Origin: a virus
Lineage: Duplodnaviria > Caudoviricetes
DNA: 48,482 nucleotides
IMG/VR virus record: IMGVR_UViG_3300020043_005195
Coordinates: 1-48,482 of that record
Strand: one strand, 5' to 3'
Below the pieces are notes generated by a model, which was not told the DNA's origin, ran no database searches, and saw nothing but the letters and a program-made list of their open reading frames with translations. Below are positions 20,535 through 40,294 of the stretch, in pieces. Within the stretch, counting starts at the first letter, position 1; each line of letters opens with the position of its first letter. Both the position numbers and the translations under genes were made by a program.

Positions 20535-22607
20535 CTAGATAAAGGTTGACAAGCCCCCGAGTTCTCTCTTCTCCCATATCCTAGTTCCGTTAGACGAATC
20601 AAAAGCTTCCTCTAAGAAGCAGCCTCTAAGTGCTTTCTCGATTCTCTCGTAGGTTCTCTGATTTAATCCTTTGGCAAGGTAGCCTTGAGAGATTAGGAAT
20701 TGGTAGATCTCGTCGAGTCGCCACTTAGTTTTCTCACTGCTACTAACTAGCGATAGGACGGGAGAGGTTAAAGGCTCTACAGTGTTCTTCTCGTTTACTA
20801 TTCTGTCATGCTCATCGGAAGGCACCTCATAGAAGCTCTCTCCATTTTTAAATCTAACTATCCCTTCAGCGAATAGTTGATCGCGAACAGCGCCTATTGC
20901 CGTAGTGTTAATCACGACATTCGAAGGAACTACTATGGGCCAGAATCTTCTACCGCCCATTCCACCCTCAAGATATTTTGAGTCGTTAGTCGTACCGATT
21001 AGAATGAAACCGCGTTGACACTTCTTAGCTTTTCTCGCATACAGTCCGCGTATCATGTCCGTACTGTTAGAGATAAAACCTTTCACTAGATTGGCGTCTT
21101 GCCCCTTTAAACCGATTAGTTCGGGAAGCTCTACCACTATTGACTGATGCATCTTTCGAAGCTCATCAAGATCTTTAAAAGCCGCACTGTTAGTAGGAGA
21201 GTATGAGTACTCCCCTCCTATAGCTTGGACCAGCGTCGACTTCCTTACCCCCTCACTCCCCTCGAAGACTATCACGTGATCGAACTTAGTTCCGGGGTGT
21301 AGCCCACGTGCAGCCAGAGCTATCCACATATTTTTAGACACTGCCCTTGTGTACTCAGTGAAAGGTATTCCGACGTAGTCCCTCAGGAACGTATCGATCC
21401 TAGGTACCCCATCCCACACTAACTCTTTAAGATATTTTTTATGCGGGTCAATCTGTCTCACGGCCATGAGTACATCAAGGGCTCCGCCGATGGTGGCCTT
21501 CTTAACTCGCTGAAGTCCTAGCCCGTGATTTACTGACTGGATCATGGGGCTCAAGATATTGGCCAGCTCAGCGTCAGAATAGTGTACGCCTTTGAATACA
21601 TACATATCTATTCTTACGTCATGGAATAATTCTTCCAGAGAGAACATTGCGCCTAAAAGTGCAGCGACGTTAGTTTCAGATGCGATGATAGATACTTTGC
21701 CAGCATTGTCGAAGGCCACGGGAACAGCGGATCGATCAAAGATTTCCTGAATAGAGAAGGGAGTCGCAGTATTGGTAGCGCCTTCTCTCATCATAGACTC
21801 TTTAATGATGGCGAATATTGTACCCGGTCCGACACTTCCATACTTCTCAGCGCGAGCTACGATATCCTGAGCTTTCATTTCATCGCCCGGGATATAGTTT
21901 CTATTGTGGGTCCACATCTCCACTAACTCGTCGAGTAATACAGGATCATCGATGCCCGCTTTCAGAGCGAACAGCCCGTCTCTCCACTCGGAGTAGCTAG
22001 GCTTACCGTTTATCTGGAACCACTCGATGCGAGCTTTCAGATCTTTAATTTGGGCTTCTGAGTAGGGACTGTGTAGATTAACCAGAGCGTGCGCAGGAGT
22101 ATCGAATGTTTTCACATCATCAGGTCGTCCCTTTGCGTGCATTAGTGCGTCGAGTAGTGCTTCGGGAGCTTCAGCTATTTGCTGAACATTTCCCCACTCG
22201 ATAGAGTAACCTCGCGAAGGCGGAGCAGCTACCCATCCGTTATAAACTACGTCCACTCCGGGAGCTAGTCGCGCAGGTGGGCTGAAGAATCTCTCGTCGA
22301 TAGATAAGGGTAGATAGTAATAGAAGTGAAAGCCTCCGGATCTAGTTCGCACAGTGTAGGTAGGTGCAAGCCCAGCCTCCATGCAGAAATTAGTCCACCA
22401 CTCGCGACCATCACTCTTATGACCTTCGCCATTGGAGCCCGCAGCGTCCACATCTATGATTACAAGTCGGTTAGGTTTTGCAGGAATCCCAATAGCGGGA
22501 AGCTGCTTTTCGATTAGATCTTTATAGGAGAAGGTCTCTACAGTTTTCCCCGAGTAGTCATGGGATATCTTTGTACCTTCTACGAATCGTATTGCTTTTA
22601 AATCCAT
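20535..22607 (-). CDS. Primase-polymerase (Prim-Pol) fused to PriCT-like linker and VirE/VapE-like P-loop helicase
   Basis: 'IIDVD', 'RTRSGGFHFYY' AEP motifs; 'SYSEWRDGLFALK'; 'WDGVPRI', 'GSEGVRKST', 'IGTTND', 'GRRFWPI'. Confidence 0.9.
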   Translation of the reverse strand: MDLKAIRFVEGTKISHDYSGKTVETFSYKDLIEKQLPAIGIPAKPNRLVIIDVDAAGSNGEGHKSDGREWWTNFCMEAGLAPTYTVRTRSGGFHFYYYLPLSIDERFFSPPARLAPGVDVVYNGWVAAPPSRGYSIEWGNVQQIAEAPEALLDALMHAKGRPDDVKTFDTPAHALVNLHSPYSEAQIKDLKARIEWFQINGKPSYSEWRDGLFALKAGIDDPVLLDELVEMWTHNRNYIPGDEMKAQDIVARAEKYGSVGPGTIFAIIKESMMREGATNTATPFSIQEIFDRSAVPVAFDNAGKVSIIASETNVAALLGAMFSLEELFHDVRIDMYVFKGVHYSDAELANILSPMIQSVNHGLGLQRVKKATIGGALDVLMAVRQIDPHKKYLKELVWDGVPRIDTFLRDYVGIPFTEYTRAVSKNMWIALAARGLHPGTKFDHVIVFEGSEGVRKSTLVQAIGGEYSYSPTNSAAFKDLDELRKMHQSIVVELPELIGLKGQDANLVKGFISNSTDMIRGLYARKAKKCQRGFILIGTTNDSKYLEGGMGGRRFWPIVVPSNVVINTTAIGAVRDQLFAEGIVRFKNGESFYEVPSDEHDRIVNEKNTVEPLTSPVLSLVSSSEKTKWRLDEIYQFLISQGYLAKGLNQRTYERIEKALRGCFLEEAFDSSNGTRIWEKRELGGLSTFI

Positions 22608-22624
22608 GGTGTCACCTAGTTAAA

Positions 22625-23101
22625 TTAAATAAAACTCTCTAGCTTTAATGAAAACTCTTCTGTCTCGTCTACCCTGAAGTCCTTATTGTTTTGTACCTCT
22701 GGCACTTTTAAAGTGGAGGCTAGACCGTAAGCTATTTCGAGAAGGGTGACAAACTTCTGAAACGGAATAACGGCCATAGCCTCCATTCTAATCCCTTTAG
22801 TGACTAGAACTGGAATATCTTTTTTATCTTTAAGTCTTACTTCATAAATCTTTCCGATAGGTGCGTAGTTCTGATAGTTCTTGCACTGTATTTTAAAGAT
22901 GTCAGTGCCCTGTATATCGACGCCCACGACTGAGGAAGCTTGCATTTCAAGCTGTCTCTCTGCCTCCGGAAAAATATGAGAAAGCTGGTTAGCGATCTCA
23001 CGCTCAAACTGTTTTCCTTTTGCTGCCCCATTAACTTTCTTTTTCTTAGATGAAGTCGCTAAGCTGGATGTCTTTTCCGCCGCTGGTTTTTTCGTTGCCA
23101 C
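22625..23101 (-). CDS. Holliday junction resolvase-like PD-(D/E)XK nuclease
   Basis: 'KGKQFEREIANQL...VDI...IQCK'; probable GTG start 23101 after AAGGAG. Confidence 0.75.
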   Translation of the reverse strand: MATKKPAAEKTSSLATSSKKKKVNGAAKGKQFEREIANQLSHIFPEAERQLEMQASSVVGVDIQGTDIFKIQCKNYQNYAPIGKIYEVRLKDKKDIPVLVTKGIRMEAMAVIPFQKFVTLLEIAYGLASTLKVPEVQNNKDFRVDETEEFSLKLESFI

Positions 23102-23324
23102 CGTTCTCTCCTTGATAAATTTCAATAATACTTTTGCCTAAAAATTTCTCGATCCATAAGAGGTGATGGGCGTTGAATCTTCGTCCTGCTAAAATACCTT
23201 TAATAGTACCTAGCTGCTCCTTCGCAATTCTTGATAGATCGTGGATAGATATGCTCTGATTCCTGAGTTCATTTGTCAAAAGCGTTGCAATAAGTTTATA
23301 AAACTTTTCATGTCTTTTATTCAT
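23046..23324 (-). CDS. XRE-like helix-turn-helix protein
   Basis: 'ISIHDLSRIAKEQLGTIKGILAGRR' HTH pattern; ATG overlaps the polymerase stop. Confidence 0.6.
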   Translation of the reverse strand: MNKRHEKFYKLIATLLTNELRNQSISIHDLSRIAKEQLGTIKGILAGRRFNAHHLLWIEKFLGKSIIEIYQGENGGNEKTSGGKDIQLSDFI

Positions 23325-26059
23325 TTTAGATATCTCCTACCTGTATCTACTGATGCACCGATTCTCATATCGGTACACCATGATGGATTAATACACATTA
23401 AACGCTCAAATTCAGCCTCTCGCCCCTTGACTGCTTGGGCCCACATTTCATCATGGATTAAGGTCAGAATGTCAAAGCCTGCCTGTTCCAAGCGGTAGAT
23501 AGCAGGGACTAGAATGTCCCTTGCAGTCGCCGATGTTACGTGCTCGGTTAGTAGCCCGCCGTATAGCTTCTTTCTAAATACTGCACCACCGTCGTCAGCT
23601 AAATAGGTTAGCCCTTCATGATCGATCTTGACATCGTGGTAAAATAGTTCCCCTCCACTCGGCAATCGGATCCTAACTCCGACAGCTCCGGGCTTAGGGC
23701 ACGACATTCGCATCACGTGAAGCTTGTTGTTGCATAGCTGAGTCGTAGTCCCGTACTGTGCGGCTGCCTTCATTGCGTACTCTAAGTTAGTCCATAGGTC
23801 AGTGATCTGGGGGTATTTATTTCTATAGGCATACACCGCTTGCTTGGCTAAGTTCTCAGTGATTCGAAGCCCTATCTTTTTAAAGACATCGACTCTGAAT
23901 TTGGCATGGCCCATTCCGTAACCACAATTATGGACTAGCCCTGATGAAGTCAAATACCTGTTCAGGTTCCCGCAGTCTTTTATGTCGTACACTGGGACGA
24001 TTTTTGTTATTAGTCGATTGGCTGACCACTCGAAGGTTTCCGGCCTCATAGTGTCCATCATTATTAATCCGGTCAATCGTGAAGCCCCATTGGTCAAACC
24101 CATCCAACGTAATGATATGTTCCAAAAATTCGCGAAAGGATTTGAATCGTACCTCAATTCCTCTACCGCCGTAGCGTGACCAATCTTTGTCCATGGTATT
24201 TTCACACCGTTTTCTTGCATTATGGTAGCAAGCGTTCCATCTTTTTCTAATCCTTGGGTCAGGAACCAAGTCGCTGCAAGCATCGGGTTTCGTATTTGTT
24301 CTGGCCCTAAGAGAGTTCGCGCAGTTAATACAAGTTCTGGCTCTGCCTCGCCAGAGTTTATCCACGCGAACAGACGCTTCAGTCCCGCATACGCAGCGGA
24401 CAGGGACATGACGTTCGACACCACGTTTGAACTCGTCTCCCACAACAGTCCATCCTCCAAAAGTTTGTCCCAGTATAGGGCTTTCGTATCCTCGCTTAGA
24501 GCCATTTCCACGGCGGTTAGCCACCCTTGGTTCGACAGTATTAAGTGATCCGGAGTCAATTCTATATTCAGTCTCTCGATCCGCATAACGCTCTTCATAC
24601 CGTTTACTGATAGTCCTCCGTGGCGGACAAACTTCTCCCCGTCCCATATTAAATCCTCCGATAATATATCCTCTATCGCGATAAGCCCGCGCTCAGTAAA
24701 CACTCTTGTCCATCCTGCCACGCACCCCAATGCCGCCGACTTACCAAGCTGTCTTTCATCGGAGTCTTTCTTTACTGTGCTAACGTCTATGCTGTAGATC
24801 GTAGCTGCCATATCTTCGTACCATCCGTCGGGTATAGGACCTAAGCCTACAAGCCAGAAGAGAACTGTAGGTTCAATACGAGACCAGTCACCACAGTAAA
24901 ATTCTAGCCCGTGATCAGGGATCCATATACGTCGAAGTAGGTTCTTTATAAAACCTAAAGGATCTTGCAGCGATGGGCGCTTGATCTTAAGTGGGGTAGT
25001 TATGTCGTCTGCGTTTAGATCGAAGTCAATCTTGTCGGGCTTCTTTCTATCCACTCGTGGGAAGTTTTGAATCTGAACTCCGCGACCTGCCCAGCGTTTA
25101 GTCTGAGCATAATGGTAGGCGAGGAGGTTATAGATTCTCCCGTTGTACATAATAGATTTAGCTGTATCTACTTTAGCTAAGCTTGTGGATCCTGCGAGGT
25201 CCTTAATCTCTAGTGCCTCTTTAGCAAAGGTAGGAATTTCAGGGCGATCATCAAGCATCATTTCCCTGATAGTATCAGCCTGCATATTTTCAATCCAAGG
25301 GTAGTACTGGCTGAACCACTCCTTCGTTTTAGTCGGAGAGTTTAATTTAACCTTGCCACCTACAAGTCGATCGAACTTAGCTGTGAGTGTAGGCATCTCT
25401 TCTTTTATAATTTTATCCATCTCATTGATAAGATCTGTATCAACTCTAATACCTCGAAGGTTTCTCCTGAAGGTCCACTCCCAAGCGAAACGCTCAGGTG
25501 CAGGGAGGGCAGGGCACAGATAGTATATATCTCGAAGCAGTCTAGTGTCGGTGCGCCCGTAGATCTCGAACTGTTCCCACTCATTCTCGTCAAGCTCAAT
25601 GAACTGTCCGGTTCTAGGGTTAGGCTTACACTGCTTGAGCATTAATTTTCTGCCCTCTTTATCTTTGTTGTATGGCATACCTAAGATATCAGCGGCACGT
25701 CCAAGACTTGCGCCGACTCTATAGTGGCAGGTGAGTGCCATGTTATCTTCTATGTTCTCAATCTTGGGATTCTCAATACAGCCAATGACTTTATTTTTGA
25801 AAGGGATCGTCCATATCAAGTAATCGAAGCCTATATTGTGCGCGATAAAATTATATTTGTGTGGGTTCATGGCGACTTCAATTAAGTCTTCATGAATATG
25901 CTGACCTTTGCGCCAAGCTTTCACGATACCAGTGCGACCGAAACACCAAGTTAGTAAGGTGGCTTCCGTCGAAGGGTGAAGGGCATAATTGATTGAGTCT
26001 ACCTCAGTAAGGTCAGCATGACTGCGGGTCTCAAAGTCGAAAAAGAAATCTATCTTCAT
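23321..26059 (-). CDS. Family A DNA polymerase containing an intein (912-aa precursor, 646 aa after splicing)
   Basis: ExoI 'FDFET', ExoII 'AHNIGFD', 'TKRWAG..VQIQNFP', motif A 'DWSRIE', motif B 'RQLGKSAALG/CGYG', motif C 'IHDE'. Confidence 0.95.
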   Translation of the reverse strand: MKIDFFFDFETRSHADLTEVDSINYALHPSTEATLLTWCFGRTGIVKAWRKGQHIHEDLIEVAMNPHKYNFIAHNIGFDYLIWTIPFKNKVIGCIENPKIENIEDNMALTCHYRVGASLGRAADILGMPYNKDKEGRKLMLKQCKPNPRTGQFIELDENEWEQFEIYGRTDTRLLRDIYYLCPALPAPERFAWEWTFRRNLRGIRVDTDLINEMDKIIKEEMPTLTAKFDRLVGGKVKLNSPTKTKEWFSQYYPWIENMQADTIREMMLDDRPEIPTFAKEALEIKDLAGSTSLAKVDTAKSIMYNGRIYNLLAYHYAQTKRWAGRGVQIQNFPRVDRKKPDKIDFDLNADDITTPLKIKRPSLQDPLGFIKNLLRRIWIPDHGLEFYCGDWSRIEPTVLFWLVGLGPIPDGWYEDMAATIYSIDVSTVKKDSDERQLGKSAALGCVAGWTRVFTERGLIAIEDILSEDLIWDGEKFVRHGGLSVNGMKSVMRIERLNIELTPDHLILSNQGWLTAVEMALSEDTKALYWDKLLEDGLLWETSSNVVSNVMSLSAAYAGLKRLFAWINSGEAEPELVLTARTLLGPEQIRNPMLAATWFLTQGLEKDGTLATIMQENGVKIPWTKIGHATAVEELRYDSNPFANFWNISLRWMGLTNGASRLTGLIMMDTMRPETFEWSANRLITKIVPVYDIKDCGNLNRYLTSSGLVHNCGYGMGHAKFRVDVFKKIGLRITENLAKQAVYAYRNKYPQITDLWTNLEYAMKAAAQYGTTTQLCNNKLHVMRMSCPKPGAVGVRIRLPSGGELFYHDVKIDHEGLTYLADDGGAVFRKKLYGGLLTEHVTSATARDILVPAIYRLEQAGFDILTLIHDEMWAQAVKGREAEFERLMCINPSWCTDMRIGASVDTGRRYLK
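23927..24724 (-). mobile_element. Intein (266 aa, residues 446-711) in polymerase motif B
   Basis: Block A 'CVAGWTRV', block B 'LTPDHLI', block F 'VYDI', block G 'LVHN' followed by +1 Cys; removal restores 'KSAALGCGYGMG'. Confidence 0.93.
23928..24647 (-). CDS. HNH-type homing endonuclease nested in the -1 frame of the intein
   Basis: 'GQTFGGWTV', 'RCVCG..TCINC', 'YGGRGI', 'IDRINNDGHYEAGNLR...NNKNR'; GGAGG 7 nt before the ATG. Confidence 0.88.
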   Translation of the reverse strand: MGRGEVCPPRRTISKRYEERYADRETEYRIDSGSLNTVEPRVANRRGNGSKRGYESPILGQTFGGWTVVGDEFKRGVERHVPVRCVCGTEASVRVDKLWRGRARTCINCANSLRARTNTKPDACSDLVPDPRIRKRWNACYHNARKRCENTMDKDWSRYGGRGIEVRFKSFREFLEHIITLDGFDQWGFTIDRINNDGHYEAGNLRVVSQSTNNKNRPSVRHKRLREPEQVFDFIRASP

Positions 26060-26376: not shown

Positions 26377-26847
26377 CTAAATAAAACTAACTGGAGCTTG
26401 TTGAGCTGCACCTAGCGTAGGAAGTTTTTCCATGAGCAAAGGTACAATAAGATTCAACTGAGCATCCGCTAACTCAGAGAGTTTCCCCGGAGCAATGTTA
26501 CAAGAGTTGAACACGTTCGCCACGACCTGAGTAATCTCTGGACCGGGAACGCCTCTTTGAGAAGCAGCATTAATCGCAGCGATAACGCCCGATAGTGCCG
26601 CGTCTCTATTGAACACTACTGCAGCCGGAGCAGCTACTGGAGCAGCCGGAGCAGCTACTGGAGCAGCCACAGGAATAGCTTGAGCAGCAGTCTGTACTGG
26701 CATAGGCGCTGGCTCTGCTTTCGCTTTAGCTTTCGCAGGTGCTTTAGGTGCAGCTTCTACTACAGTCGAAGGTACTGCGACTGTCTTGCCGTTTACGAAA
26801 TTTTGTAATTCTTCAAGTGTCTTAAACTCTACAGTAAACTTATACAT
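26377..26847 (-). CDS. Ala/Pro-rich linker protein of the replication module
   Basis: 156 aa, AAGGAG SD; short N-terminal domain, PAPVAA linker, helical C-terminal domain. Confidence 0.7.
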   Translation of the reverse strand: MYKFTVEFKTLEELQNFVNGKTVAVPSTVVEAAPKAPAKAKAKAEPAPMPVQTAAQAIPVAAPVAAPAAPVAAPAAVVFNRDAALSGVIAAINAASQRGVPGPEITQVVANVFNSCNIAPGKLSELADAQLNLIVPLLMEKLPTLGAAQQAPVSFI

Positions 26848-26856
26848 AAACTCTCC

Positions 26857-27546
26857 TTACATGAACGTCGATGGTGTCATCGGCTGATTATATTGTTGTG
26901 GTTGTGCGGGCTGAGCAGGTGCAGTCGGAGGCCATGTGACTGTTCCTGCAGGTGCAGCTACGGGTTGAGCTATACCCATGTCTGCAGCGAATGATCCAAA
27001 CACTTGGTTCACGTCGACTTGAGGTATTCCTCCCTCTTTCTCTCCACCCGGCATAATCATAACAGCAAGTAGGTTAGCACTTAAACCTTTCTTCTCTCCA
27101 GTGAGAGCGTAGAAACTAAAGCTAACTACCGCGTTCATTCCAGAGTAGACCTTTGCTGGATCCATTAAAGGCTGACGATTATGATCAACGATTAACGGTG
27201 GGAATTGATCGCCCGACGACAGGTTAATCCAATAAGAATCTTTAAGGAAAGCGTGATTAGGCTTCCCATCAGTGCGCTGATAAACGCCCCACTTCTTAAT
27301 CGGATTCACGAAATACTGGTCAGGGATAGTAGGAAAAAATTTCTGCTTTGACTCAGCTAAAAACGCTCCCACTTGCGCTGTCATAGCTGCGTTCTGCGGA
27401 GAGTTCATAGGCCATGAGAACATCGCGCTGTACTTCAATCTCTCCCCCGGCTTTCTCGCCTTAGGCTGAAGTAGATCAGGGAAAAATACTCGTCCCTGAA
27501 AGGTAAATTTCTTGTCGTAGAAAAAAGACTTCATCTCGTTTGACAT
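26857..27546 (-). CDS. Single-stranded DNA-binding protein (DUF2815/Enc34-like)
   Basis: 'RVFFPDLLQP...KYSA', 'VYSGMNAVVS..FYA..KKGLSANL'; sits between DUF2800 and PolA; start placed after AAGGAGG. Confidence 0.8.
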   Translation of the reverse strand: MSNEMKSFFYDKKFTFQGRVFFPDLLQPKARKPGERLKYSAMFSWPMNSPQNAAMTAQVGAFLAESKQKFFPTIPDQYFVNPIKKWGVYQRTDGKPNHAFLKDSYWINLSSGDQFPPLIVDHNRQPLMDPAKVYSGMNAVVSFSFYALTGEKKGLSANLLAVMIMPGGEKEGGIPQVDVNQVFGSFAADMGIAQPVAAPAGTVTWPPTAPAQPAQPQQYNQPMTPSTFM

Positions 27547-27556
27547 AAGTTCCTCC

Positions 27557-28813
27557 TTATTCAATTGTTACAGTTTCTTCAAAAGCAGCAAAAGCAGACA
27601 ATATCTCTTGCACTTTTTCGTCTAACACTATTAATTCTTTCGATACAGGTTTTACAGTAAGCACGTCGCATTTATTTTTACCGACTAATTTCTCTACTTC
27701 AGTGATGGTGATCAGTTTCTGCACCATCCTTACAGGTTCTACCTTAGGAAAAGTTTCTTTAATTCTTTTCGCCATATCTTCAATGTCATCATTAACCCAG
27801 CGTCTGCGACCTTCTTTATCTCGAAGAACTACGCCCTGTAAAGCCTCTCCCTGCGCCAGTCTAAAAGTCAATTCGCTCTTAGCATCTTCCGCCATCTTTG
27901 ACAGTAGCGGAGCAAGACTTATAATTTTTATCAATGCTTTATCTCTCTTAGCTTCTTTCTCTGGATCCACTAATGCAGAGTCAGTAGGTCGAACAGCTTC
28001 CATGGTTTTAAAAAACTCATTAAAGTTTTGATTGGCCATATCTACAGCTTGCTGTTTTATCATAGGACATTTAAGTGCAGGGTCTTTAGTTCTTTTGGCA
28101 GGACACCAGAAGCAGTGAGATCCGCCGACGGGTTCCTCATCTAGCTTGCTTCTCTTTATCGCAGTAACCACTTCATCTTCAAGAACTTCAAGGTCAGCTA
28201 TTGTATAGTCGTCGACCTTAGGGATCACTGCCATTCTAGGCTGGTGAACTACGGCAAAGAACATATAGTCTTCAGGAATATTTTCTAAGTTTCTCATCAC
28301 TCCAAGTGCATACTGTTTTAACTGAACACTGCCTTTCTTAACTTCTTTGCCTTTACCGTATTTAAAATCTAAAACTACAGTTCCAAGGGTTCCTATGATA
28401 AGGAAGTCAGCGGTCCCAAAACATTCATCCTCTAAAAATATAGGGATCCCCACTTCTTGACCGAACCAAATAACCTCCCCGAGTATGTCGTCGCGCTTTA
28501 ACCACGCAGTAACTACGTCAAGGAATTGATGGGCACAGTCTAGCATCTCTTCACCTTGATCAGGTAAATGCGCGAGCTGCATATTTATGTGAGGAGGAAA
28601 ATCAATTCCAAAATAGTCACGACGAAATACTGCTTCGCAAACTGAGTGAGCTAGAACTCCCTCCTTAGCGTAGGAAGAGGTCTCGTTCGGTATGTCTGCT
28701 GATAATTTAATACTGGCAGGGCAAGCCATCCATCTCTCGCTTGCACTTGGAGAGTAAACGCTGTGCTCTGATGGACGAACATAGTCCAGTAAAGCTTTCT
28801 TAATTGTAATCAT
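27557..28813 (-). CDS. DUF2800 Cas4-like PD-(D/E)XK exonuclease
   Basis: 'HSVYSPSASERWMACP', 'GTADF', 'DFKYGKG', 'QLKQYALG', 'HCFWCPAK'. Confidence 0.88.
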   Translation of the reverse strand: MITIKKALLDYVRPSEHSVYSPSASERWMACPASIKLSADIPNETSSYAKEGVLAHSVCEAVFRRDYFGIDFPPHINMQLAHLPDQGEEMLDCAHQFLDVVTAWLKRDDILGEVIWFGQEVGIPIFLEDECFGTADFLIIGTLGTVVLDFKYGKGKEVKKGSVQLKQYALGVMRNLENIPEDYMFFAVVHQPRMAVIPKVDDYTIADLEVLEDEVVTAIKRSKLDEEPVGGSHCFWCPAKRTKDPALKCPMIKQQAVDMANQNFNEFFKTMEAVRPTDSALVDPEKEAKRDKALIKIISLAPLLSKMAEDAKSELTFRLAQGEALQGVVLRDKEGRRRWVNDDIEDMAKRIKETFPKVEPVRMVQKLITITEVEKLVGKNKCDVLTVKPVSKELIVLDEKVQEILSAFAAFEETVTIE

Positions 28814-28839: not shown

Positions 28840-28868
28840 ATATTAATCACGTTAAATAAAAGTGTCAA
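28840..28868 (-). promoter_or_regulatory. Sigma70-type promoter TTGACA-N17-TAATAT for the exonuclease-SSB-Pol operon
   Basis: Perfect -35, 17-bp spacer, followed by a leader shared with the 33733-33761 promoter. Confidence 0.75.
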
Positions 28869-30192
28869 GATCCAGAACTCCGAGGTTCTTGGTATTCTCA
28901 TATAGTAATTCGTTGATGGTCTCCGCATCTTCTTTCTTGCGCATAACCTTTCCAAGTATTTGCCGATCGTTCTCGCCGCTTGTAAGAAAATAATGGAGAG
29001 TTCTTCTTGTCTGTCCTCCCCGGTGCGTTCGTGCCATAGCTTGAGCCACCTTGGCGTAAGTCCACGGATAGCCATGGTATAGAGAGCAAGCTGCGTTCTG
29101 CAAGTTTAGTGCTTCAGCTCCTGCGCCATAGGTAAGTCCTAAGACTTTAAGTTTTCCTTGTTGAAATTTCTGAAGTATGGCACTCCTCTCATCATTGCTT
29201 TGTGCTCCAGTAATCAGCTCCATTTTCCCTGCGAAGGTAGCCTTAGCTTCTTGCAAAGGGAAAAGATAATTGGAGAACACTACTAGCTGCTCAGTCGAAG
29301 TATGTAAATAATCTCTAATCCAATCTAACATATAAGGCGTCTTAGCCCGAGCAAGTTTCTCCAGTAATTCCATGTAGGCTTCTGGATGCTCAATGTCGGC
29401 GTCGGCAAGTAGCCTATCGTCGTCAAGTTTAAGATCGATAGCTATCTCTTGCTTAGCAGGTAGATCAATACAATCTTCTACTGCGACATAATGAATGACT
29501 GGATTTAAAAGCTGAGATAACATCTCCGCGTTCTGTATCCCTTCGTGAGTAGCTCCTTTCTTTTTCCCATCTCTATAGGTAGACCACTCACGCTCCTTTC
29601 TCTGAGCAAAAGTAAGCTTCCATTTCTCAAAGCGTTTCACGTCAATAATTCTTTGTGCGCTTTCTTCTATAGTCTGTGCTGCCGTTATTGCCCACGAGGT
29701 ATAGTATTCTTGTGCCCCGTTAGTCATTGGAGTTCCGGAGAGTAGAATAATCTTTCCACCTTTAAAAGAGTTCTGCGACTTATGAATAGTCATGAACAAG
29801 GCTGAAAGATTTTTAGATCTCTCAGTGTCAGGGTTCTTTACGAAGTGTGACTCGTCCATGACCACTGCTCTAATGTCGTGGTAAAAACAAATTTGTGCAG
29901 CCTTGTGGATCTGAGAGTAAGGGATAAGTAAAAGGCTACGATACATCTCAGGTATAAACTTATTGCACTCTTGCTGCCATGTCGTGTGCGCTGACTTAGG
30001 AATTATCACTAAAGCTTTGGGAGTCGCCGACTGTCCGCTGCTCCTGAGCTTAGCGAAGTGCTCCTGTAAAAAGTGCAGCGTGGTTAGAGTCTTTCCGCTT
30101 CCCATGCCGTGCTGAGCTAATGCTCCAATGTAGGGAGTCTTAGTCACAAAAGAAATAAATTCGTTCTGGTGGTTTCTTAAAGTATATTTCAT
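28852..30192 (-). CDS. SNF2-like superfamily 2 helicase
   Basis: 'GMGSGKT', 'MDESH', 'LSGTP', 'AEALNLQ', 'QAMARTHRGGQ'. Confidence 0.9.
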   Translation of the reverse strand: MKYTLRNHQNEFISFVTKTPYIGALAQHGMGSGKTLTTLHFLQEHFAKLRSSGQSATPKALVIIPKSAHTTWQQECNKFIPEMYRSLLLIPYSQIHKAAQICFYHDIRAVVMDESHFVKNPDTERSKNLSALFMTIHKSQNSFKGGKIILLSGTPMTNGAQEYYTSWAITAAQTIEESAQRIIDVKRFEKWKLTFAQRKEREWSTYRDGKKKGATHEGIQNAEMLSQLLNPVIHYVAVEDCIDLPAKQEIAIDLKLDDDRLLADADIEHPEAYMELLEKLARAKTPYMLDWIRDYLHTSTEQLVVFSNYLFPLQEAKATFAGKMELITGAQSNDERSAILQKFQQGKLKVLGLTYGAGAEALNLQNAACSLYHGYPWTYAKVAQAMARTHRGGQTRRTLHYFLTSGENDRQILGKVMRKKEDAETINELLYENTKNLGVLDLDTFI

Positions 30193-30725: not shown

Positions 30726-31220
30726 TTAAGCTAGTCTGCGGTAGGCAAGTAGCTGCTCCCTTGGGTAGCGAGAAATATTAACTTGGTTGTTTTGGTTTCC
30801 GCCCAGAACATAAATATATTCTGCGTCTTCACGGACATAAAACGCTACGTGCCCAGTGCTGGCTTTCCGGTCTCCTCTCCAAAAAACTACAACGTCTCCT
30901 GCCATAGGGTTTTTGAATACAGGTAAGCCCCACACTAAGAATGATCTGGCCAGTGCGGAATGAGTTCCTTCGACTCCTGCCTGCTTAAGGCACCAATTTA
31001 CAAACGAAGCACACCATGGAACTTCATCAGTCGAAGCCTTAAGTGAGGTAGCTTTGTGATACTCGATGACTCTAGGATTGTGAGTGCCCCCGGGAATTTC
31101 AGTAACACCTAGTTCGTCTTTAGCAATCTGATAATGCTTAGGCGTGATAGGCTTAAAAGGTTTTATAGCTACGGGCTTCGACTCTTTCTTTTTGAATAAA
31201 TTTAGTATCCACTTAAACAT
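30726..31220 (-). CDS. TIGR02594-like NlpC/P60/CHAP peptidoglycan hydrolase (probable endolysin)
   Basis: 'DEVPWCASFVNWCL', 'GDVVVF', 'GHVAF', 'LGGNQNNQV'. Confidence 0.88.
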   Translation of the reverse strand: MFKWILNLFKKKESKPVAIKPFKPITPKHYQIAKDELGVTEIPGGTHNPRVIEYHKATSLKASTDEVPWCASFVNWCLKQAGVEGTHSALARSFLVWGLPVFKNPMAGDVVVFWRGDRKASTGHVAFYVREDAEYIYVLGGNQNNQVNISRYPREQLLAYRRLA

Positions 31221-31229: not shown

Positions 31230-31856
31230 CTACTTATTTACGGCTTTAATTGCCATAGTTGATTTTTTATTTTCACCTACATTTTGTCGCAAAACGGACC
31301 AATAACGCGCTCCGCCAAGCCACTGGTCTCCCACTTTGCCAGCAATTCTTTTATCGCGAGACACCCAACGATTGAGTATCCGTACTCCACACTCAAGGTT
31401 AAGCTTAGGATCGTGCAGGTATTCTGCCACGGGTAGTGGGCATCCGTATCCCTTCGCCGACTCTATTGATAGCTGGAGAAGTCCGCGAGAAATTATATAC
31501 TCCCCTTTTTGATCTTTAAATGATTCTTTATATTGAGTGAAAGTCTTCCACCCTGACTCGTAGTATGCCATCTCTACTATGATCTTAGCCCAGAACTTTA
31601 CGCGCTCATCATGGGTCTCAGGGAAGCTATTGGAGAAGTCTTTCCAGTCGGTAGGCTTAACCTCTAATAGATCTCTGCCGTAAATAACTAAGGCTTTAAT
31701 GAGGTGAGTATCGTAGGTCGTATTATTCCAGCGCCCTTTAAAGTCTATAGTCTCCTGCTCAGTGGGGGTAGGGGTAAATGTAGGGCTACCCGTCGGAGTA
31801 GGCACGGGATCTTGACTGCACGAAATAAACAAAAATAAAATAACTAACTGCTTCAT
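31230..31856 (-). CDS. Lipoprotein with SLT-type lytic transglycosylase domain
   Basis: Lipobox-like 'FIS-C', Pro/Thr linker, 'YES', 'SRGLLQLS', 'DPKLNLECGVRIL'. Confidence 0.8.
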   Translation of the reverse strand: MKQLVILFLFISCSQDPVPTPTGSPTFTPTPTEQETIDFKGRWNNTTYDTHLIKALVIYGRDLLEVKPTDWKDFSNSFPETHDERVKFWAKIIVEMAYYESGWKTFTQYKESFKDQKGEYIISRGLLQLSIESAKGYGCPLPVAEYLHDPKLNLECGVRILNRWVSRDKRIAGKVGDQWLGGARYWSVLRQNVGENKKSTMAIKAVNK

Positions 31857-34012: not shown

Positions 34013-34216
34013 CTAGATAAAAGTTGATAGATCAATGTCGCTTCGATTAACTGAACTATTGCGAATAAATCTTTCGCGTTTCCATTTTCTATAGTGTTCT
34101 CTGATCATGTCAAGGGCACAGGTCAGCATAAAAAATAAAACCAGTACTGCCCACAGACTGGCTAAGAATATTAGTAGCTCGCCTCTCATTTCTTGATTAA
34201 AATAGCTCATTTCCAA
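34013..34216 (-). CDS. Small single-TM membrane protein
   Basis: Hydrophobic stretch then basic tail ending IDLSTFI. Confidence 0.65.
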   Translation of the reverse strand: MEMSYFNQEMRGELLIFLASLWAVLVLFFMLTCALDMIREHYRKWKRERFIRNSSVNRSDIDLSTFI

Positions 34217-34655: not shown

Positions 34656-34913
34656 TTAAAAAGGGATATCATCGGCACAAAAATCATGCTTAAGTACATT
34701 GTCCGCTATTTCCTCGTATGCTCCGAACTTTTCTTTATTCCACAGATTGCGTCTGTCACCGTCGACGACCTTAATCACGTCCAAGAATTTTCGCAGTAGC
34801 GTGTGGTTAGTCATCGGTCGATCGATCTCAAGCTTTGCCAAGTATTCTAGTACGTCCTGACATTTTTGCAAGTCTTCACTATGAATTGTTTGCTCGGTTA
34901 GTTTAGTATCCAC
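34656..34913 (-). CDS. Hypothetical protein ending in an SSB-like DDIPF tail
   Basis: GGAGG SD, GTG start, C-terminus ADDIPF. Confidence 0.7.
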   Translation of the reverse strand: MDTKLTEQTIHSEDLQKCQDVLEYLAKLEIDRPMTNHTLLRKFLDVIKVVDGDRRNLWNKEKFGAYEEIADNVLKHDFCADDIPF

Positions 34914-34925
34914 AATTGCCTCCGG

Positions 34926-35483: not shown

Positions 35484-35510
35484 AATTGCCTCCGGTTAAT
35501 AGTTATTTAG

Positions 35511-35813
35511 TTAATAGTTTCGTGCAAAAGATACTCTTATAATATAGTCGCTTGCGTTTCCTGCTTCGGGCGCTAAGTACATATCGAAAACGTCAAGTGA
35601 AGACGTAAACCAATGCCCACAACAATCACGGGCGCAGCCGCAGCTTTTCCCCCAGCCAAATTTCTCAGCCGCCCACGACATGATAGCTTCCTTAGTCGCA
35701 GTACTTTCCAGCCTATAAAACGCATAGCCTCGCGGTGACTCAGCTTCCAGTGTTAGATAGCTGTACTCCTCGCCTGTAGGTTCCTCGATATACACTTTTT
35801 TAGATTCGCTCAC
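35511..35813 (-). CDS. Hypothetical protein with CGCxxDCCG motif
   Basis: 100 aa, GGAGG SD, GTG start. Confidence 0.65.
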   Translation of the reverse strand: MSESKKVYIEEPTGEEYSYLTLEAESPRGYAFYRLESTATKEAIMSWAAEKFGWGKSCGCARDCCGHWFTSSLDVFDMYLAPEAGNASDYIIRVSFARNY

Positions 35814-35995
35814 TTATCGCCTCCGGTTTTAACGTATTCTTTAATCATATTAATTTTCTCTAGTATCGCGTCCCAATTATCTAAGTCAGTGCAATCCCAC
35901 ATTGAGCAGGTCGAATCGTTTTCTAATGCCCTTATTTGCTGTTTTATGTCTCGTTGTAGGCTGTTAATCGATAATATTACTTCTGTCTTTTTCAT
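35810..35995 (-). CDS. Hypothetical protein
   Basis: 61 aa, overlapping start/stop chain. Confidence 0.6.
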   Translation of the reverse strand: MKKTEVILSINSLQRDIKQQIRALENDSTCSMWDCTDLDNWDAILEKINMIKEYVKTGGDK

Positions 35996-36483
35996 GCTAT
36001 CTTCCCCGACTCATAAAATTCATAGTCGTTAGCCTCGCAAAGGTCGCTAATGTAATCATCGCCCAGCATTGCCTCGTACTCCGAATGAATAGATTTTAGA
36101 TATTCGTTAAGTGCAGTCTTAATAGAATCAGCCGATAAGAAAGGCTTAACTAGGTGTTCTAGTAGATCAATGTCATAAGTGCAGCCGGTCAACGGGCAAT
36201 CGTCAATTTTTAGCACTAACTCGAATAGGTGGGCATAATTAAAATCATCATGCGTAGGCTTGATAGTTATATGCTCGCCACGATCGGGGACACAAGAAAT
36301 TGAGTAATCCAATTTGCCGTCGATTGCCTTTGCAAAAGCTTTTAAAGTTTCGATTCGTTCCTGCATACAATGATCATATAAATAGCTGGATAAATTATCG
36401 ATGATTTTATCTTTTAGGTCTCTGCTGGCTTCCTCGAACTTATAAATTTTATACTCTTTTATCACTGTTCTCATTTTAAACAC
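35992..36483 (-). CDS. Acidic early phage protein
   Basis: 'IYKFEE' N-terminus and 'CEANDYEFYESG' C-terminus, a pattern I recognise from mobile-element hypotheticals; function unknown. Confidence 0.65.
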   Translation of the reverse strand: MFKMRTVIKEYKIYKFEEASRDLKDKIIDNLSSYLYDHCMQERIETLKAFAKAIDGKLDYSISCVPDRGEHITIKPTHDDFNYAHLFELVLKIDDCPLTGCTYDIDLLEHLVKPFLSADSIKTALNEYLKSIHSEYEAMLGDDYISDLCEANDYEFYESGKIA

Positions 36484-36682
36484 TCCCTTTCATGAATTTT
36501 TTATTTTTAGTTATCTTGATAGATTCAACGGCATTAAACGGCATTAGTTGATCTTTCATAGCGTATTTAATCGCCATTAAAATATTGCTCGCCAGCTCTA
36601 CCCCGTCGTCGGCTTCAGTGTAAGGCTTAACGATGCGCGTGCCGTTTGAAGTTTTTATTTCTATTCTATAGATTGTTTTCAT
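36476..36682 (-). CDS. Hypothetical protein
   Basis: 68 aa, packed in operon. Confidence 0.55.
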   Translation of the reverse strand: MKTIYRIEIKTSNGTRIVKPYTEADDGVELASNILMAIKYAMKDQLMPFNAVESIKITKNKKFMKGSV

Positions 36683-36684
36683 AG

Positions 36685-37497
36685 TTAGTATTCCATGCCT
36701 AAGGTTTCTACAATGCGCTTAAGATTCGCTAAAATCATTGGCAATCTTGCCTCCAATTTTTCCTTGGTAAAGTCTTCAAGTGTAGCATCCTCCCATAGAG
36801 CGCAAGCGCGTGCAGCTTCAAGATCGGGAGTTTTTCCCTCCCCGTAAGCACTGGCTTCAGTTTTATAGCTAATCCTGCAAGTTCGCAGCGCCTCTAAAAT
36901 TTGGTATGCTTCGATCTCATCGCTGAAAGGCGCTCCATACCAAGTGCAAGCTCTCTCGTCTTTTCTCCAAGTATGAAAGTCATTAAAAGTATATTTAGGC
37001 GAGAATGAATAGTCTTTTCCCATATAAGGGCACTCTACGACTTGGAGAGTGTTAGCGTCGACGGTTTTAGTAAATTCCACAAATTTCTCGCCATAATCTT
37101 TCATGGGCACTGGGACATCGTTAAAAAACACTCGGGTTTTAAAATTCTTGGGCTCTCCTTTTCGATATCCCCAGCAATCCCGATCACTCGCATGATAAAG
37201 GCTATTGGCTACGTAATGCATAGGGGAGTCACTAGATACAAGGTGGTATTTGATTGCCTCGCGTAGCTCAGGGAAATGCTCGGATATAATGTCATGAATA
37301 CATCCGCCCGTAAGAAAGGCAGAATCCGAGCGCCTGCCTCTCTTGTATACACTGCCCGTAACGGATAAGCTGTTATGCCCATTTCCGCACTCATCGTCGA
37401 ATCTTACCTTAACCACTAAGTCGCAAGGCTTCCCGTCGTATTCGATCTCTTTGGTATACGTTTTAGATTGATTCTTTACTAGTTTACTTGAATTCAT
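36685..37497 (-). CDS. Early phage protein of unknown function
   Basis: 270 aa; 'RFDDECGNGHNS', 'GGCIHD', 'PMHYVAN' His/Cys-rich motifs. Confidence 0.75.
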   Translation of the reverse strand: MNSSKLVKNQSKTYTKEIEYDGKPCDLVVKVRFDDECGNGHNSLSVTGSVYKRGRRSDSAFLTGGCIHDIISEHFPELREAIKYHLVSSDSPMHYVANSLYHASDRDCWGYRKGEPKNFKTRVFFNDVPVPMKDYGEKFVEFTKTVDANTLQVVECPYMGKDYSFSPKYTFNDFHTWRKDERACTWYGAPFSDEIEAYQILEALRTCRISYKTEASAYGEGKTPDLEAARACALWEDATLEDFTKEKLEARLPMILANLKRIVETLGMEY

Positions 37498-37501
37498 AAA
37501 A

Positions 37502-37798
37502 TTATTCTCCCTGCATTTGGCAGATCACTGCCTTTTCGTTTTGCTCGTCTTCACAAAAATCTCTGATAGATTCTTCCTCGTTATCATTGCGCTGTTCGCG
37601 CTCGATATCCGCGTGCTCTAAGTAGGCTTCCTCTTCGACTTCGCTGGCTTCGAAATTGGCACCTATTAAGACGCTATAGGTTTTAGCCGTAGCAGAAGCA
37701 GCCGCCTGGCTTGCCTCCGCTTTAATGCTGGCTAATGCGCTTAAAAGCAGCATGATTAAAATTAGTTCTCTAGTGGCTATGGGTTTAGAGTATTTCAT
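37502..37798 (-). CDS. Exported or membrane-anchored acidic small protein
   Basis: Signal-peptide-like N-terminus ending AEA, Glu-rich body with two Cys. Confidence 0.6.
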   Translation of the reverse strand: MKYSKPIATRELILIMLLLSALASIKAEASQAAASATAKTYSVLIGANFEASEVEEEAYLEHADIEREQRNDNEEESIRDFCEDEQNEKAVICQMQGE

Positions 37799-37800
37799 AA

Positions 37801-38403
37801 TTAACCTCTATTCGCTGAAACTAAATCAGCCTTGTCGAAGGTCACTCCAAAATCCGCATCATCTTTGCCTGATTTAAGAGGCATGATAATCATGAAATTA
37901 TCGGCTTCGAGTACCTCGAAGGTGATAGGGCTTAAGCTTCCGTTAAGCTTAACCACGTATTCAGTGCCATCAGCTAAAGGCTTCAAGAAACTGGCATTAA
38001 TTCGGAACATTAAATTTTCATGCGGTAAGTATTCATTAGAGACTTTGCCCGATTCGTAAAAATAAGCGCGTGGTGGCTTCTGACTTGATCGGTGGGGTTG
38101 ATAGTGGTGGGGTTCAATGCGATAGCTTATTTTAAGTTTATAGCTGGTCGGTATAATAGATGCGACTCGGGGATATTCGCGCTTTACGGTGCATAGAGTT
38201 TTAGGGTTAATAATTAGATCGGCTAAGCTTTGATCATATAGGCACTGCGCGTGCGCTAATATATGCCCATCCGTCGATATAAGCGCCTTGCGCTCCGATA
38301 GGTGGATATAGCCGGCTAAATTCGGTCGCGTTTCGTCCTTCGATATACAATATTGTACTATCTCCAGCATTTTTTCGTAGGGTTTTTTCTGTTTTTTAGC
38401 CAT
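37801..38403 (-). CDS. Truncated DNA polymerase III beta-clamp (DnaN)-like protein
   Basis: 'ISKDETRPNLAG', 'ISTDGHILA', 'EYPRVASIIP', 'INASFL', 'IIMPLK' match beta-clamp domain II/III motifs; ATG 38403 after AGGAG; 200 aa. Confidence 0.7.
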   Translation of the reverse strand: MAKKQKKPYEKMLEIVQYCISKDETRPNLAGYIHLSERKALISTDGHILAHAQCLYDQSLADLIINPKTLCTVKREYPRVASIIPTSYKLKISYRIEPHHYQPHRSSQKPPRAYFYESGKVSNEYLPHENLMFRINASFLKPLADGTEYVVKLNGSLSPITFEVLEADNFMIIMPLKSGKDDADFGVTFDKADLVSANRG

Positions 38404-38502
38404 TTTTTCGTCTCCTATATAGTGGGCAATAGAGCCCGTTAAGTTATTGATTTTACGTTGTAGCGTATATTGCACTGGAATTCGTGTTCCACAAGCATGG
38501 AC

Positions 38503-38531
38503 TTGATAGCTTTTTAAAAAGAGTGTGTCAA
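38503..38531 (-). promoter_or_regulatory. Putative early promoter TTGACA-N17-TATCAA
   Basis: Perfect -35 and 17-bp spacer upstream of the first - strand gene; -10 imperfect. Confidence 0.55.
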
Positions 38532-38616
38532 CTGGAATCTCTTTGGCTGTTTATAACTCAGGGCATAAAATCACTTTGCTGCCTCTGGTATAAATATTTT
38601 ATGAGGTTGTAAGTAT

Positions 38617-38645
38617 TTGAAAGTGTTAGTGTAGTGGGGTATAAT
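38617..38645 (+). promoter_or_regulatory. Sigma70-type promoter TTGAAA-N17-TATAAT
   Basis: 11/12 consensus match with 17-bp spacer; points into the non-coding region. Confidence 0.6.
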
Positions 38646-39328
38646 AAGCATAGTCTATTTATAACAAATTAGGTGAGTTATAGGTGCGCAGGTTCCAGGT
38701 GCAGTAATACGAATTTTAGAAATGTTTGGAAATCAGTACATGCATCTTTGCATAGGCTAGCTACACTATACGACTTTGCTGTTTTTCCACAAAAGTGCCT
38801 ATATATCGTAGTACGCTGCGACGCTCAGCATAGCACACTATACAATTGCATAGCGTGCTATCGTACATAGCGGCATATCGTACTAATAGCAGCTAAAAGT
38901 ACTTAATGCGTATTATCATATTGCGCTATACTCTCCACTTCGCGACTCTATGCCTAGCCTCGCATATACTCGGCGGCGCGGAGAGTTTAACTCCGACTCT
39001 CCGCGTCCAAGCTATTGGGTATTTTTGGCGCTCCTAAATAGCCTTTAAAACGCTTCGAACACTCCAGCCCTGCCCTACGTATACCCTACCGCTCTAAAAG
39101 CTCTCAAATCGAATCCTCGTAAGCCTGCATTGATCCCTGCCACTTAGATCATTGGAGAGTTTAAGGCTTACATGACTTAGCAGTCTACGGGCTTAGATCA
39201 ATAGACTATAGGCTATAGCTGTGCAGGTGCGTTAGAAGCAGCCGCGTCATCGCGCGTGCGTGCGCGTGGTATAGTCATAGGCATATAGACTATAGGTGCG
39301 TGGTGGGTGGGGTAGCAGGTATAGACTA

Positions 39329-39383
39329 GTAGGGTACGCGCGTGAGGTATAGACTGGTAGGGTACGCGCGTGAGGTATAGACT
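39329..39383 (+). repeat. 27-bp tandem repeat x2 (period 28)
   Basis: GTAGGGTACGCGCGTGAGGTATAGACT at 39329 and 39357. Confidence 0.9.
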
Positions 39384-39458
39384 ATGGGTGGGGGAGGGGG
39401 TGGCGCCCCCATTTGTGCGCGGTGTGGCGGGGGATATCCCACCACGTCTCAAAAATTC

Positions 39459-39553
39459 TAAAACTTAAAACCACTACTGCATTGTGTCATAGTATACAGG
39501 TAATAGCTGTAAAACTTAAAACCACTACTGCATTGTGTCATAGTATACAGGTA
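39459..39553 (+). repeat. 44-bp direct repeat x2 (period 51)
   Basis: TAAAACTTAAAACCACTACTGCATTGTGTCATAGTATACAGGTA at 39459 and 39510. Confidence 0.92.
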
Positions 39554-39677
39554 GCATCCCTCCCCCGCTTGAAAATATGGAGATTTTTTGTAACCAAAAC
39601 TACCTAGAAATGGATACAAAAAGTGACCACCCTCCCCACCTTGGAAAAATACATACGAAAAATATTGACTCCTCCGG

Positions 39678-39706
39678 TTGAATATGTCGACGAAACGATT
39701 TAGACT
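39678..39706 (+). promoter_or_regulatory. Putative promoter TTGAAT-N17-TAGACT for terS (leaderless)
   Basis: Six bases separate the -10 from the ATG; no SD present. Confidence 0.5.
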
Positions 39707-39712
39707 GCCCCT

Positions 39713-40294
39713 ATGAGGCTAACAGATAAGGCAAGAGATTTTATTCAATACTATGACGGCGACGACGTGAAATGCATGCGTTTAGCAGGGTACGAAGGTG
39801 CCGATATCTATCTGCAGAAAAAAGCCGAGGAACTGCTCAAGAATCCCATAGTGCAAAAAGCCCTACAGGACAGAGACAAATACTACGAATCGAGAACCCA
39901 AATAGTCGCCGACCGGCAGGAACGACAGGCGTGGTGGACCAGTATCATGCGGAACAAAGATCCTGATGCCGTTCCAGAATACGACGGTAATGGACTCCCT
40001 AAGTCAACAAACGTCCCTCTGCCTACCCGACTAAAGGCATCCGAAATGCTGGGTAAGTCGGAGGGGGATTTTATCGAAAGGCATATTCACGAAGGTAACA
40101 TTACGATCACGGATATCATTCGCCAGAGCTATTCTCTTGACGATCCTGCGGAAGACGTAGAAGCTATAGAAGCGGCGTATCGTGAAATTAAAAATAAGAA
40201 AGAGTTGATCGAAGAGATTACTCCGGTTGAAACTCCAAACACGCCGACGGGGTCAACGGGAGAAACAGAACTAGATATAGCAACATTTTTATAA
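39713..40294 (+). CDS. terS: Terminase small subunit
   Basis: 'LTDKARDFIQYY', 'LAGY', 'LLKNPIV', 'RLKASEMLGK'; first gene of the packaging block. Confidence 0.8.
   Translation: MRLTDKARDFIQYYDGDDVKCMRLAGYEGADIYLQKKAEELLKNPIVQKALQDRDKYYESRTQIVADRQERQAWWTSIMRNKDPDAVPEYDGNGLPKSTNVPLPTRLKASEMLGKSEGDFIERHIHEGNITITDIIRQSYSLDDPAEDVEAIEAAYREIKNKKELIEEITPVETPNTPTGSTGETELDIATFL

Follow-up and report, generated by a model that had tools for sequence, protein, structure and literature searches.

Eight unrelated proteins encoded by the phage genome IMGVR_UViG_3300020043_005195 (Duplodnaviria; Caudoviricetes) end in the same kind of short hydrophobic sequence, and this C-terminal tag recurs on the same protein families throughout a clade of related phages, where it is rewritten genome by genome and travels with a replication module that includes an SSB (a protein that binds single-stranded DNA). 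The stretch analysed, hereafter the window, is the complete virus record of 48,482 bases, with direct terminal repeats. It belongs to a BPP-1-like podophage, with head and tail genes of the BPP-1/epsilon15 type (GP7 capsid, Bbp16, Bbp19, head-tail connector) and a replication module made up of PolA, an Enc34/DUF2815 SSB, a DUF2800 exonuclease, an SNF2 helicase, a RusA-like resolvase and a Prim-Pol/VapE primase-helicase. The first-pass annotation had read the tag as a phage-wide docking code or, alternatively, a shared degron; the observation as a whole is confirmed here, and the interpretation is partly supported. Judging from sequence, we consider it probable that the tag is a private docking plug for one phage-encoded pocket of the replication module.

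Enrichment and conservation of the tag

Endings of the form [TSD]-F-[ILM] close 8 of the 55 curated open reading frames (ORFs) of the window, where the frequency of internal tripeptides predicts 0.06 (P 2.7e-15); in simulations that allow for post hoc choice, 5 of 100,000 runs gave six identical terminal dipeptides among 55. All eight C-termini first noticed are present (Table 1), six fit [LI]-x-[TSD]-F-[IL] as had been said, and the gene labels given at the time are upheld by Pfam and PHROG (Prim-Pol plus VapE, RusA-like, Enc34 SSB, SNF2, terminase small subunit (TerS), Bbp19). The ending of the Bbp19-like protein at 45798 had rightly been called weaker, being poorly kept (3/14 genomes), and a ninth member, the Bbp15-like head-region protein, lies beyond the range first read.

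The clade sample comprised the window and 13 near-complete genomes (G001, G005-G013, G015-G017), together with a partial genome (G002), an outgroup containing Ns (G014) and fragments. Family counts used a broad pattern covering all flavours of the tag, with G002 and G014 left out and a few orthologues missed by clustering uncounted. In these 14 genomes the tag is kept on the same families: primase-helicase and SNF2 helicase (13/14 each), resolvase and TerS (12/13 each), a small helix-turn-helix (HTH) protein (11/12), a family adjoining the SSB and here called the 26377 protein (11/13), SSB (9/14), the Bbp15-like protein (8/11) and DUF2800 (3/14). It was found in 0/14 genomes on the polymerase (Pol), terminase large subunit (TerL), portal, scaffold, capsid, Bbp16, two tail tube proteins and two internal proteins, and once on a further internal protein (1/14) and on one small protein (1/12). 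The outgroup carries it on the primase and TerS only. The clade consensus is hydrophobic-D-x-[FL]-[IVL]-COOH; as a general motif, the exact [TSD]-F-[ILM] does not hold, for it is the window's own flavour, with 0-7 matches in 12 other genomes tested.

Close SNF2 homologues end hydrophobic-x-x-hydrophobic-hydrophobic in 76 of 82 cases, 69 of them with Asp in second place, as against 0/11 among distant homologues. Every genome also has tagged orphans, including XRE-type HTH proteins, an HNH nuclease, a PAPS-reductase-like protein and proteins of unassigned function; four of the 21 given to Pfam matched at or near the cut-off. Two further observations concern individual relatives. The DUF2800 region of G017 (4145-5351) is split into two ORFs of 280 and 134 residues, both tagged (TNALV, EFLGL), and the TerL N-termini of G013 (SLDDLLG) and G017 (DIFDLLL) are tag-like stretches that are perhaps N-terminal copies of the plug.

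Selection on the peptide

A codon test covered 57 tags from five families in 12 genomes. Third codon positions hold 0.01-0.48 bits, compared with 1.36-2.0 bits at the second positions of the three hydrophobic sites, and Ser at -2 (the last residue being 0) is encoded across eight families 15 times by AGY and 15 times by TCN. Tagged genes use all three stop codons, and the next start lies anywhere from 163 bases before the stop of the tag to nowhere on that strand. The end of the HTH gene is double-coded with the start of the resolvase gene, and some TerS stops overlap the TerL start; the codon result holds when HTH is omitted. Selection acts on the peptide, not on DNA, and the free third positions, the two Ser codon families and the variable gene spacing bear out what had first been argued from codon variation in the window.

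A DNA or RNA element that incidentally encodes the tag, such as a ribosome-binding region, an RNase site or a repeat, is scarcely conceivable on these grounds. It could draw on the overlap of some TerS and helicase stops with the next start (ATGA) and on the position of the HTH end inside the resolvase gene, but would have to accommodate the free third positions, the equal use of Ser codon families, the exchange of W, Y, F and L, a flavour unrelated to GC content, and tags on genes with no same-strand gene downstream. The primase-helicase gene of the window is the last in its operon, with no downstream start for its tag to serve. The ribosome-binding site as such was likewise rejected.

Flavours change in step

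The tag comes in flavours that differ from genome to genome (STFI, LDDLI, KYL, LGL). In-step change was measured on 71 proteins from five unrelated families in 15 genomes against 5000 within-family shuffles: between proteins of the same genome, 2.54 of the last five residues agree, compared with 1.58 after shuffling (standard deviation 0.07, maximum 1.87; p 0.0002), and the control residues -15 to -11 show no in-step effect (0.37 versus 0.33, p 0.25). Eight proteins have switched in G016, seven to S/Q/T/R/K-Y-L or KY endings (for example SLIGKYL, SLGSKYL, SLEGKYL and LLARYL, written with differing synonymous codons) and one to KHFI, and six have switched in G017 to LGL or MNL. This switching, with conservation on the same families, supports the phage-wide docking code first proposed.

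Mapped on a helicase tree from which the tails had been left out, flavour shows 10 changes, compared with 33 for shuffled labels (minimum 26), and it is therefore inherited, with a few jumps. The KYL flavour occurs in two distant lineages and the aromatic flavour in three separate groups on the replication-gene tree. The short tags of the SSB and the 26377 protein (class B, beside the full-length tags of class A) lack the hydrophobic residue at -4 and mostly read S/G-F-I/V, even in Leu-flavour genomes.

Association with the SSB replication module

Sixteen named isolates with the same capsid family, hand-picked from 103 records, were compared using ORFs from a codon-trained caller; Phe was allowed as last residue after Vibrio phage 1.185.O had been seen, so that P values for the isolates are partly post hoc. 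Tagged ORFs number 22/241 in five isolates with an Enc34-type SSB (four recognised by PF10991, BPP-1 by annotation and family profile) and 6/599 in eleven without a PF10991 match (epsilon15, phiV10, Tyrion, AF, Ab31, HU1, Carin1, CP2, BUCT708, Mel-JY33, BD1), the ORFs not being independent of one another. BPP-1 has 6/48 ORFs ending [DG]L[VI] (Bbp15, TerS, a methylase, DUF2800, SSB, Bbp45). Vibrio phage 1.185.O has 8/46 by pattern, seven of which end S/N-F/W-hydrophobic (TerS, SNF2, DUF2800, an HNH nuclease, two methylase-like proteins and one of unassigned function), and Caulobacter phage Jess A has 4/54, one being a terminal-repeat duplicate.

The eleven isolates without the SSB have the same head and terminase genes and carry no tags, TerS included, beyond those pattern hits. 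The Bdellovibrio myoviruses phi1402 (1/39 ORFs) and phi1422 (1/71) have no tag habit, and a Salmonella phage added as an extra negative has 0/60. The 74 distant DUF2800 loci show no overall enrichment of the pattern (44/1366 ORFs), an acidic tail usually sits on the SSB alone there, and some loci (L039, L042, L047) have shared endings of their own. Since isolates with the SSB are tagged, and same-head isolates without it are untagged along with the Bdellovibrio myoviruses, the tag habit goes with the SSB replication module from host to host, and not with head genes or host. In distant modules, namely those of BPP-1 (L387), L042, L043, L047 and L070, a second shared ending, D-F-x-x-hydrophobic, marks DUF2800 and small proteins (Bbp41 and Bbp44 of BPP-1) and lies near the end of the SSB.

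The same comparison bears on the idea that the tag is a TerS-type handle for TerL or the portal, which other proteins use to reach the packaging motor. TerS is tagged in nearly every genome and TerL in none, two TerL columns split by flavour, and the TerL of G016 has lost eight conserved basic residues, as many as that of the more distant G017. Yet the polymerase of G016 has lost as many basic residues as its TerL, the TerL of G013 itself starts with a tag-like stretch, and all eleven isolates that share head and terminase genes but not the SSB leave even TerS untagged, which makes a terminase handle very unlikely.

A C-terminal degron, by which Lon, FtsH, ClpXP or a tail-specific protease of the host would keep non-virion DNA-handling proteins low or clear them on schedule, is unlikely. 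C-terminal Lon degrons are an established class, the tag is a free hydrophobic C-terminus on an unstructured tail and is restricted to non-virion proteins, a membrane protein among them, and the KYL flavour arose twice. Against this, the tag follows the SSB module over Beta-, Gamma- and Alphaproteobacterial hosts and is absent from same-host phages without the module, the two unrelated Bdellovibrio phages are untagged, and flavour tracks phage phylogeny (10 changes versus 33 shuffled). Asp near the end usually weakens degrons of the ssrA type, and LDDLI, KYL and LGL would seem to vary more than conserved host proteases should allow.

Host and possible host-encoded hubs

No close named isolate was found for the window phage (top helicase identity 27%, top capsid identity 45%), and a GTDB prophage search gave no close match. 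Because every named homologue of its transglycosylase among 120 listed belongs to Bdellovibrio or Bdellovibrionales, a host in Bdellovibrionota is likely on the evidence of this single gene. The transglycosylase (31230-31856), of Bdellovibrio type with a lipoprotein-like start, and a CHAP amidase (30726-31220) lie in the early/middle region, distant from the lysis cassette. The sole helicase homologue with an NCBI name is on a contig of an Aequorivita metagenome-assembled genome (MAG), but Aequorivita was not accepted as host because window genes use Shine-Dalgarno sites.

A host protein could also be the hub, with the tag docking on the beta clamp, RNA polymerase, or a nucleoid or polar scaffold protein and the flavours standing for hosts. 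The clients are mostly DNA-acting, like clamp ligands, and [SD]-[LF]-hydrophobic and L-G-L endings recall two types of beta-clamp motif end. In a phylum sample of 61 genomes around a MAG titled Pseudobdellovibrionaceae, which may not be of the host's class, DnaN has diverged strongly (mostly 22-55 bits to PF00712) and its pocket residues have changed. Many of 30 MutS ends in that sample, however, carry Q-x-x-L-F-like motifs in another register, without the Asp or terminal Ile of the tag, which tells against the host clamp as first suggested. Other phage proteins have clamp-like and host-SSB-like endings apart from the tag (DDIPF at 34656 of the window), and the epsilon15-like phages and Bdellovibrio myoviruses are untagged; a host hub is quite unlikely. 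In most genomes of the sample (L305-L334), the diverged DnaN has altered peptide-pocket residues and an extra C-terminal loop, and MutS keeps its Q-x-x-L-F-like motifs.

The DnaN-like protein of the phage itself, also among the hubs first suggested, was rejected because it occurs in 2/15 genomes of the family table (1/14 other records searched) while the tag is clade-wide. The second copy, in G013, is 37% identical to that of the window.

A proposed docking plug and its candidate readers

In the docking model that we favour, the tag would bind as a short amphipathic turn through its free carboxylate, with hydrophobic residues at -4, -1 and 0 and often Asp at -3, and its reader would be phage-encoded; since plug and pocket would then both be phage genes, each lineage could drift to its own flavour. 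The tag is probably the end of the SSB tail, which clients would have acquired by copying or by convergence, much as a tail is common to gp2.5 and gp4 of T7. The two classes, A (primase, helicase, resolvase, HTH, TerS, orphans) and B (SSB, 26377 protein), might be two grades of one code or a two-step chain. With 8-12 tagged proteins per genome, helicases, resolvase, regulators, modifying enzymes and TerS would be drawn to replicating phage DNA, so that replication, recombination and the onset of packaging would be coupled. A bolder version, possible but doubtful, makes the 26377 protein or the SSB a peptide-reading scaffold that gathers about a dozen tagged enzymes, including newly acquired methylases and nucleases, in a replication-and-packaging compartment, with pocket and tags switching together and blocking co-infecting relatives from using each other's machinery.

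Within the docking model, the helical domain of the 26377 protein is the leading candidate reader, though a tentative one, followed by the groove of the SSB oligonucleotide-binding (OB) fold; other proteins, TerL included, come next as a group, and the polymerase is the least probable. The 26377 protein is modelled with an N-terminal helix, an A/P-rich linker and a three-helix C-domain (residues 81-147; predicted local distance difference test score >90). Residue 102, at the start of helix 2, is G or A in 7/7 aromatic-tag genomes and D, E or T in 7/7 Leu-tag genomes, and a held-out Leu genome (L214) has D there. A fold search with the model gave generic three-helix matches (best Z 7.0, root-mean-square deviation 3.5 over 66 residues), and the ESM Atlas gave unnamed viral clusters at 0.84-0.85 with TM never >0.38. 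In the isolates, proteins of 26377-like build adjoin DUF2800; a 26377 profile search did not detect them.

For the SSB, crystals are described (PMC5686142) in which Enc34 ORF6, two DUF2815 proteins and gp2.5 place their C-termini in the beta-sheet groove of an adjacent SSB, and a preprint gives a predicted contact between a defence protein and the DUF2815 beta-sheet (bioRxiv 10.64898/2026.10.21.760695). For the polymerase, T7 gp4 tails are described as docking on basic patches of gp5 (PMC12593628). Loss of conserved basic residues in G016 and G017 points to no one protein, and the two KY-type SSBs share two columns, which is uninformative. A complex prediction with SSB (1-192), the 26377 C-domain (74-150) and the helicase tail (417-446) scored 0.12 against a mark of 0.32, with controls not folded, and counts neither way.

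Several findings weigh against a phage-encoded pocket or against a given reader. No single reader is singled out for the tag, and the candidates are leads from sequences and models. Residue 102 is one of 15 flavour-splitting non-tag columns over 21 families (the others being in TerL, Pol and tail genes), so that its covariation is a lead and not statistically separable; the mixed-flavour genome G008 has E there, tree support at the nodes that matter is weak (0.06-0.84), and in most Leu-flavour genomes the tail of the 26377 protein itself still reads S-F-I. Among the SSB columns none follows flavour, and the SSB tip is absent or altered in 5/14 genomes, on a tail that is non-acidic, unlike that of T7. 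Vibrio phage 1.185.O keeps its tags with a polymerase of another family (phrog_1252), which speaks against a polymerase reader. The presence of KYL in two lineages could equally be explained by a host-coded reader, and neither a membrane protein nor a head-region protein would be an expected client of a docking code. Among the isolates, Acinetobacter phage 4316 has SSB, DUF2800 and PolA, yet 1/46 ORFs tagged, and the 3/47 of BcepC6B by pattern do not include its real shared ending, GSDLA on primase and DUF2800.

Comparison with known systems

The closest parallel is the docking of T7 gp2.5 and gp4 tails on gp5, gp2.5 being of the same SSB fold family as the window SSB. The terminal Phe of the T7 tail is reported to be important. 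The T7 SSB and primase-helicase share a flexible-linker tail with a hydrophobic end (as described in PMC12593628 and PMC5686142), and those of the window end STFM and STFI. In the clade, by contrast, 8-12 proteins per genome are tagged, including TerS, resolvase, regulators, methylases and orphans; the tag is short, has no acidic tract, ends hydrophobic-hydrophobic, mostly in Ile and not Phe, and is rewritten genome by genome, and its reader may not be the polymerase. No T7-like acidic tail ending in Phe was found in the clade, where SSB tails are rich in Q, N, G and P and the last residue is mostly I, V, L or M. By analogy, the tag would work like T7 tail docking with far more clients, while lacking two of its marks, the acidic tract and the terminal Phe. 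The low-complexity SSB tails, up to about 130 residues long in place of acidic ones, could favour condensates.

Clamp-binding motifs of T4 gp45 and PCNA-interacting (PIP) boxes likewise bring many DNA-transaction clients to one site by a C-terminal plug in the hydrophobic-x-x-hydrophobic-hydrophobic register. The clade tag, often [ST]-L-D-x-[FL]-[IL], differs in lacking the Gln anchor and in always using the free C-terminus, and no conserved gp45- or PCNA-like clamp or loader was found in the clade by Pfam and PHROG, a fold search for a diverged clamp not having been made. The bacterial beta-clamp motif, QL[SD]LF, is also a short hydrophobic C-terminal motif on DNA-acting proteins; the tag has L/I and D at -4/-3, no Gln and another register, and only the LGL flavour matches its end.

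The tip of bacterial SSB (DDDIPF type) is read via its free carboxylate and is alike in its hydrophobic C-terminal end, but there the tip sits on one hub and the pockets on many partners, whereas here the tip sits on many clients. Other clade proteins carry mimics of the host tip. An 85-residue protein of the window (34656-34913, minus strand) ends DDIPF, resembling the tip of host SSB; in four relatives a separate family has the endings APF, IPF or LPF, and phi1422 has two such endings. PDZ class I ligands read [ST]-x-hydrophobic-COOH; S or T stands at -2 in 7/8 window tags, Asp is the commonest residue there in the clade (26/57), and Pfam found no PDZ domain in 55 window proteins. The HslU and FtsZ C-terminal peptides, considered as look-alikes, were dropped, as both need residues that the tag lacks.

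No account of a genome-wide shared C-terminal tag in these phages was found in a literature search that left most subscription papers and supplements outside its reach. New here are the non-acidic flavours, the measured in-step switching, the use of named isolates to test the module link, and a candidate reader. If the docking model is true, a large group of small podophages would organise replication, recombination and packaging by a portable five-residue plug instead of a sliding clamp, and the question of how TerS locates newly replicated phage DNA would have an answer open to test. Conserved genes of unassigned function adjoining the SSB would gain a role, orphans would be recognisable as replisome clients by their last residues, and STFI, LDDLI, KYL and LGL would offer natural orthogonal tag-pocket pairs. 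The cultured members Caulobacter phage Jess A, Vibrio phage 1.185.O and BPP-1 make the tag code directly testable.

Features of the window

Table 1. Tagged proteins of the window and other genes discussed in the text
Protein	Position	Strand	C-terminus	Tag and matches
Primase-helicase (Prim-Pol + VapE)	20535..22607	-	GGLSTFI	class A (full-length)
RusA-like Holliday-junction resolvase	22625..23125	-	LKLESFI	class A; phrog_244 E 2e-11
Small HTH-like protein	23046..23324	-	IQLSDFI	class A; 3' end overlaps resolvase start in another frame
Family A DNA polymerase	23321..26059	-	RRYLK	untagged; phrog_17
26377 protein, function unassigned, adjoins SSB	26377..26847	-	QAPVSFI	class B (short)
T7-type (Enc34/DUF2815) SSB	26857..27564	-	MTPSTFM	class B; PF10991 E 7e-19
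DUF2800 exonuclease	27557..28813	-		untagged in the window
SNF2-type helicase	28852..30192	-	LDLDTFI	class A
Orphan with one predicted membrane helix	34013..34216	-	IDLSTFI	class A; hydropathy peak 2.7
DnaN-like protein, 224 residues	37801..38475	-		PF02767 E 0.0016
TerS	39713..40294	+	LDIATFL	class A; PF03592, phrog_51
Bbp19-like protein	45373..45798	+	FDIDTVI	weak; PF25181
Bbp15-like head-region protein	47971..48348	+	AKNLV	weak variant

The window SSB, which also matches phrog_112 and the PDB entries 4klk and 4jg2, has a Q/P-rich, non-acidic tail. The small HTH-like protein has no Pfam or PHROG match, and a profile of its family matches repressor-like genes in named isolates. The family of the Bbp15-like protein ends DDLV, SSLV or SDLI in relatives, and its profile matches BPP-1 bbp15, which ends SGGDLV. 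Of the membrane anchor first proposed, the predicted helix and the tag of the orphan at 34013 stand, but a conserved anchor is unsupported, the protein having no relative in other clade genomes; its ATG overlaps the stop codon of the upstream gene.

The window polymerase carries a 266-residue in-frame insertion (23927-24724, minus strand) that starts with Cys and ends with His-Asn before Cys, as inteins do, and has no Pfam match. An HNH endonuclease (phrog_374, E 9e-28) lies inside it at 23928-24647, on the same strand in another frame. For comparison, the ShiLan insertion is described as having an out-of-frame HNH and no splicing marks (PMC11855218). The insertion is missing in relatives except G017, which has a polymerase of equal length. 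Upstream of TerS, the non-coding stretch at about 39320-39490 holds two direct repeats (a 31-base and a 45-base copy pair, read by eye) and a G-rich stretch, and is a possible origin or packaging site.

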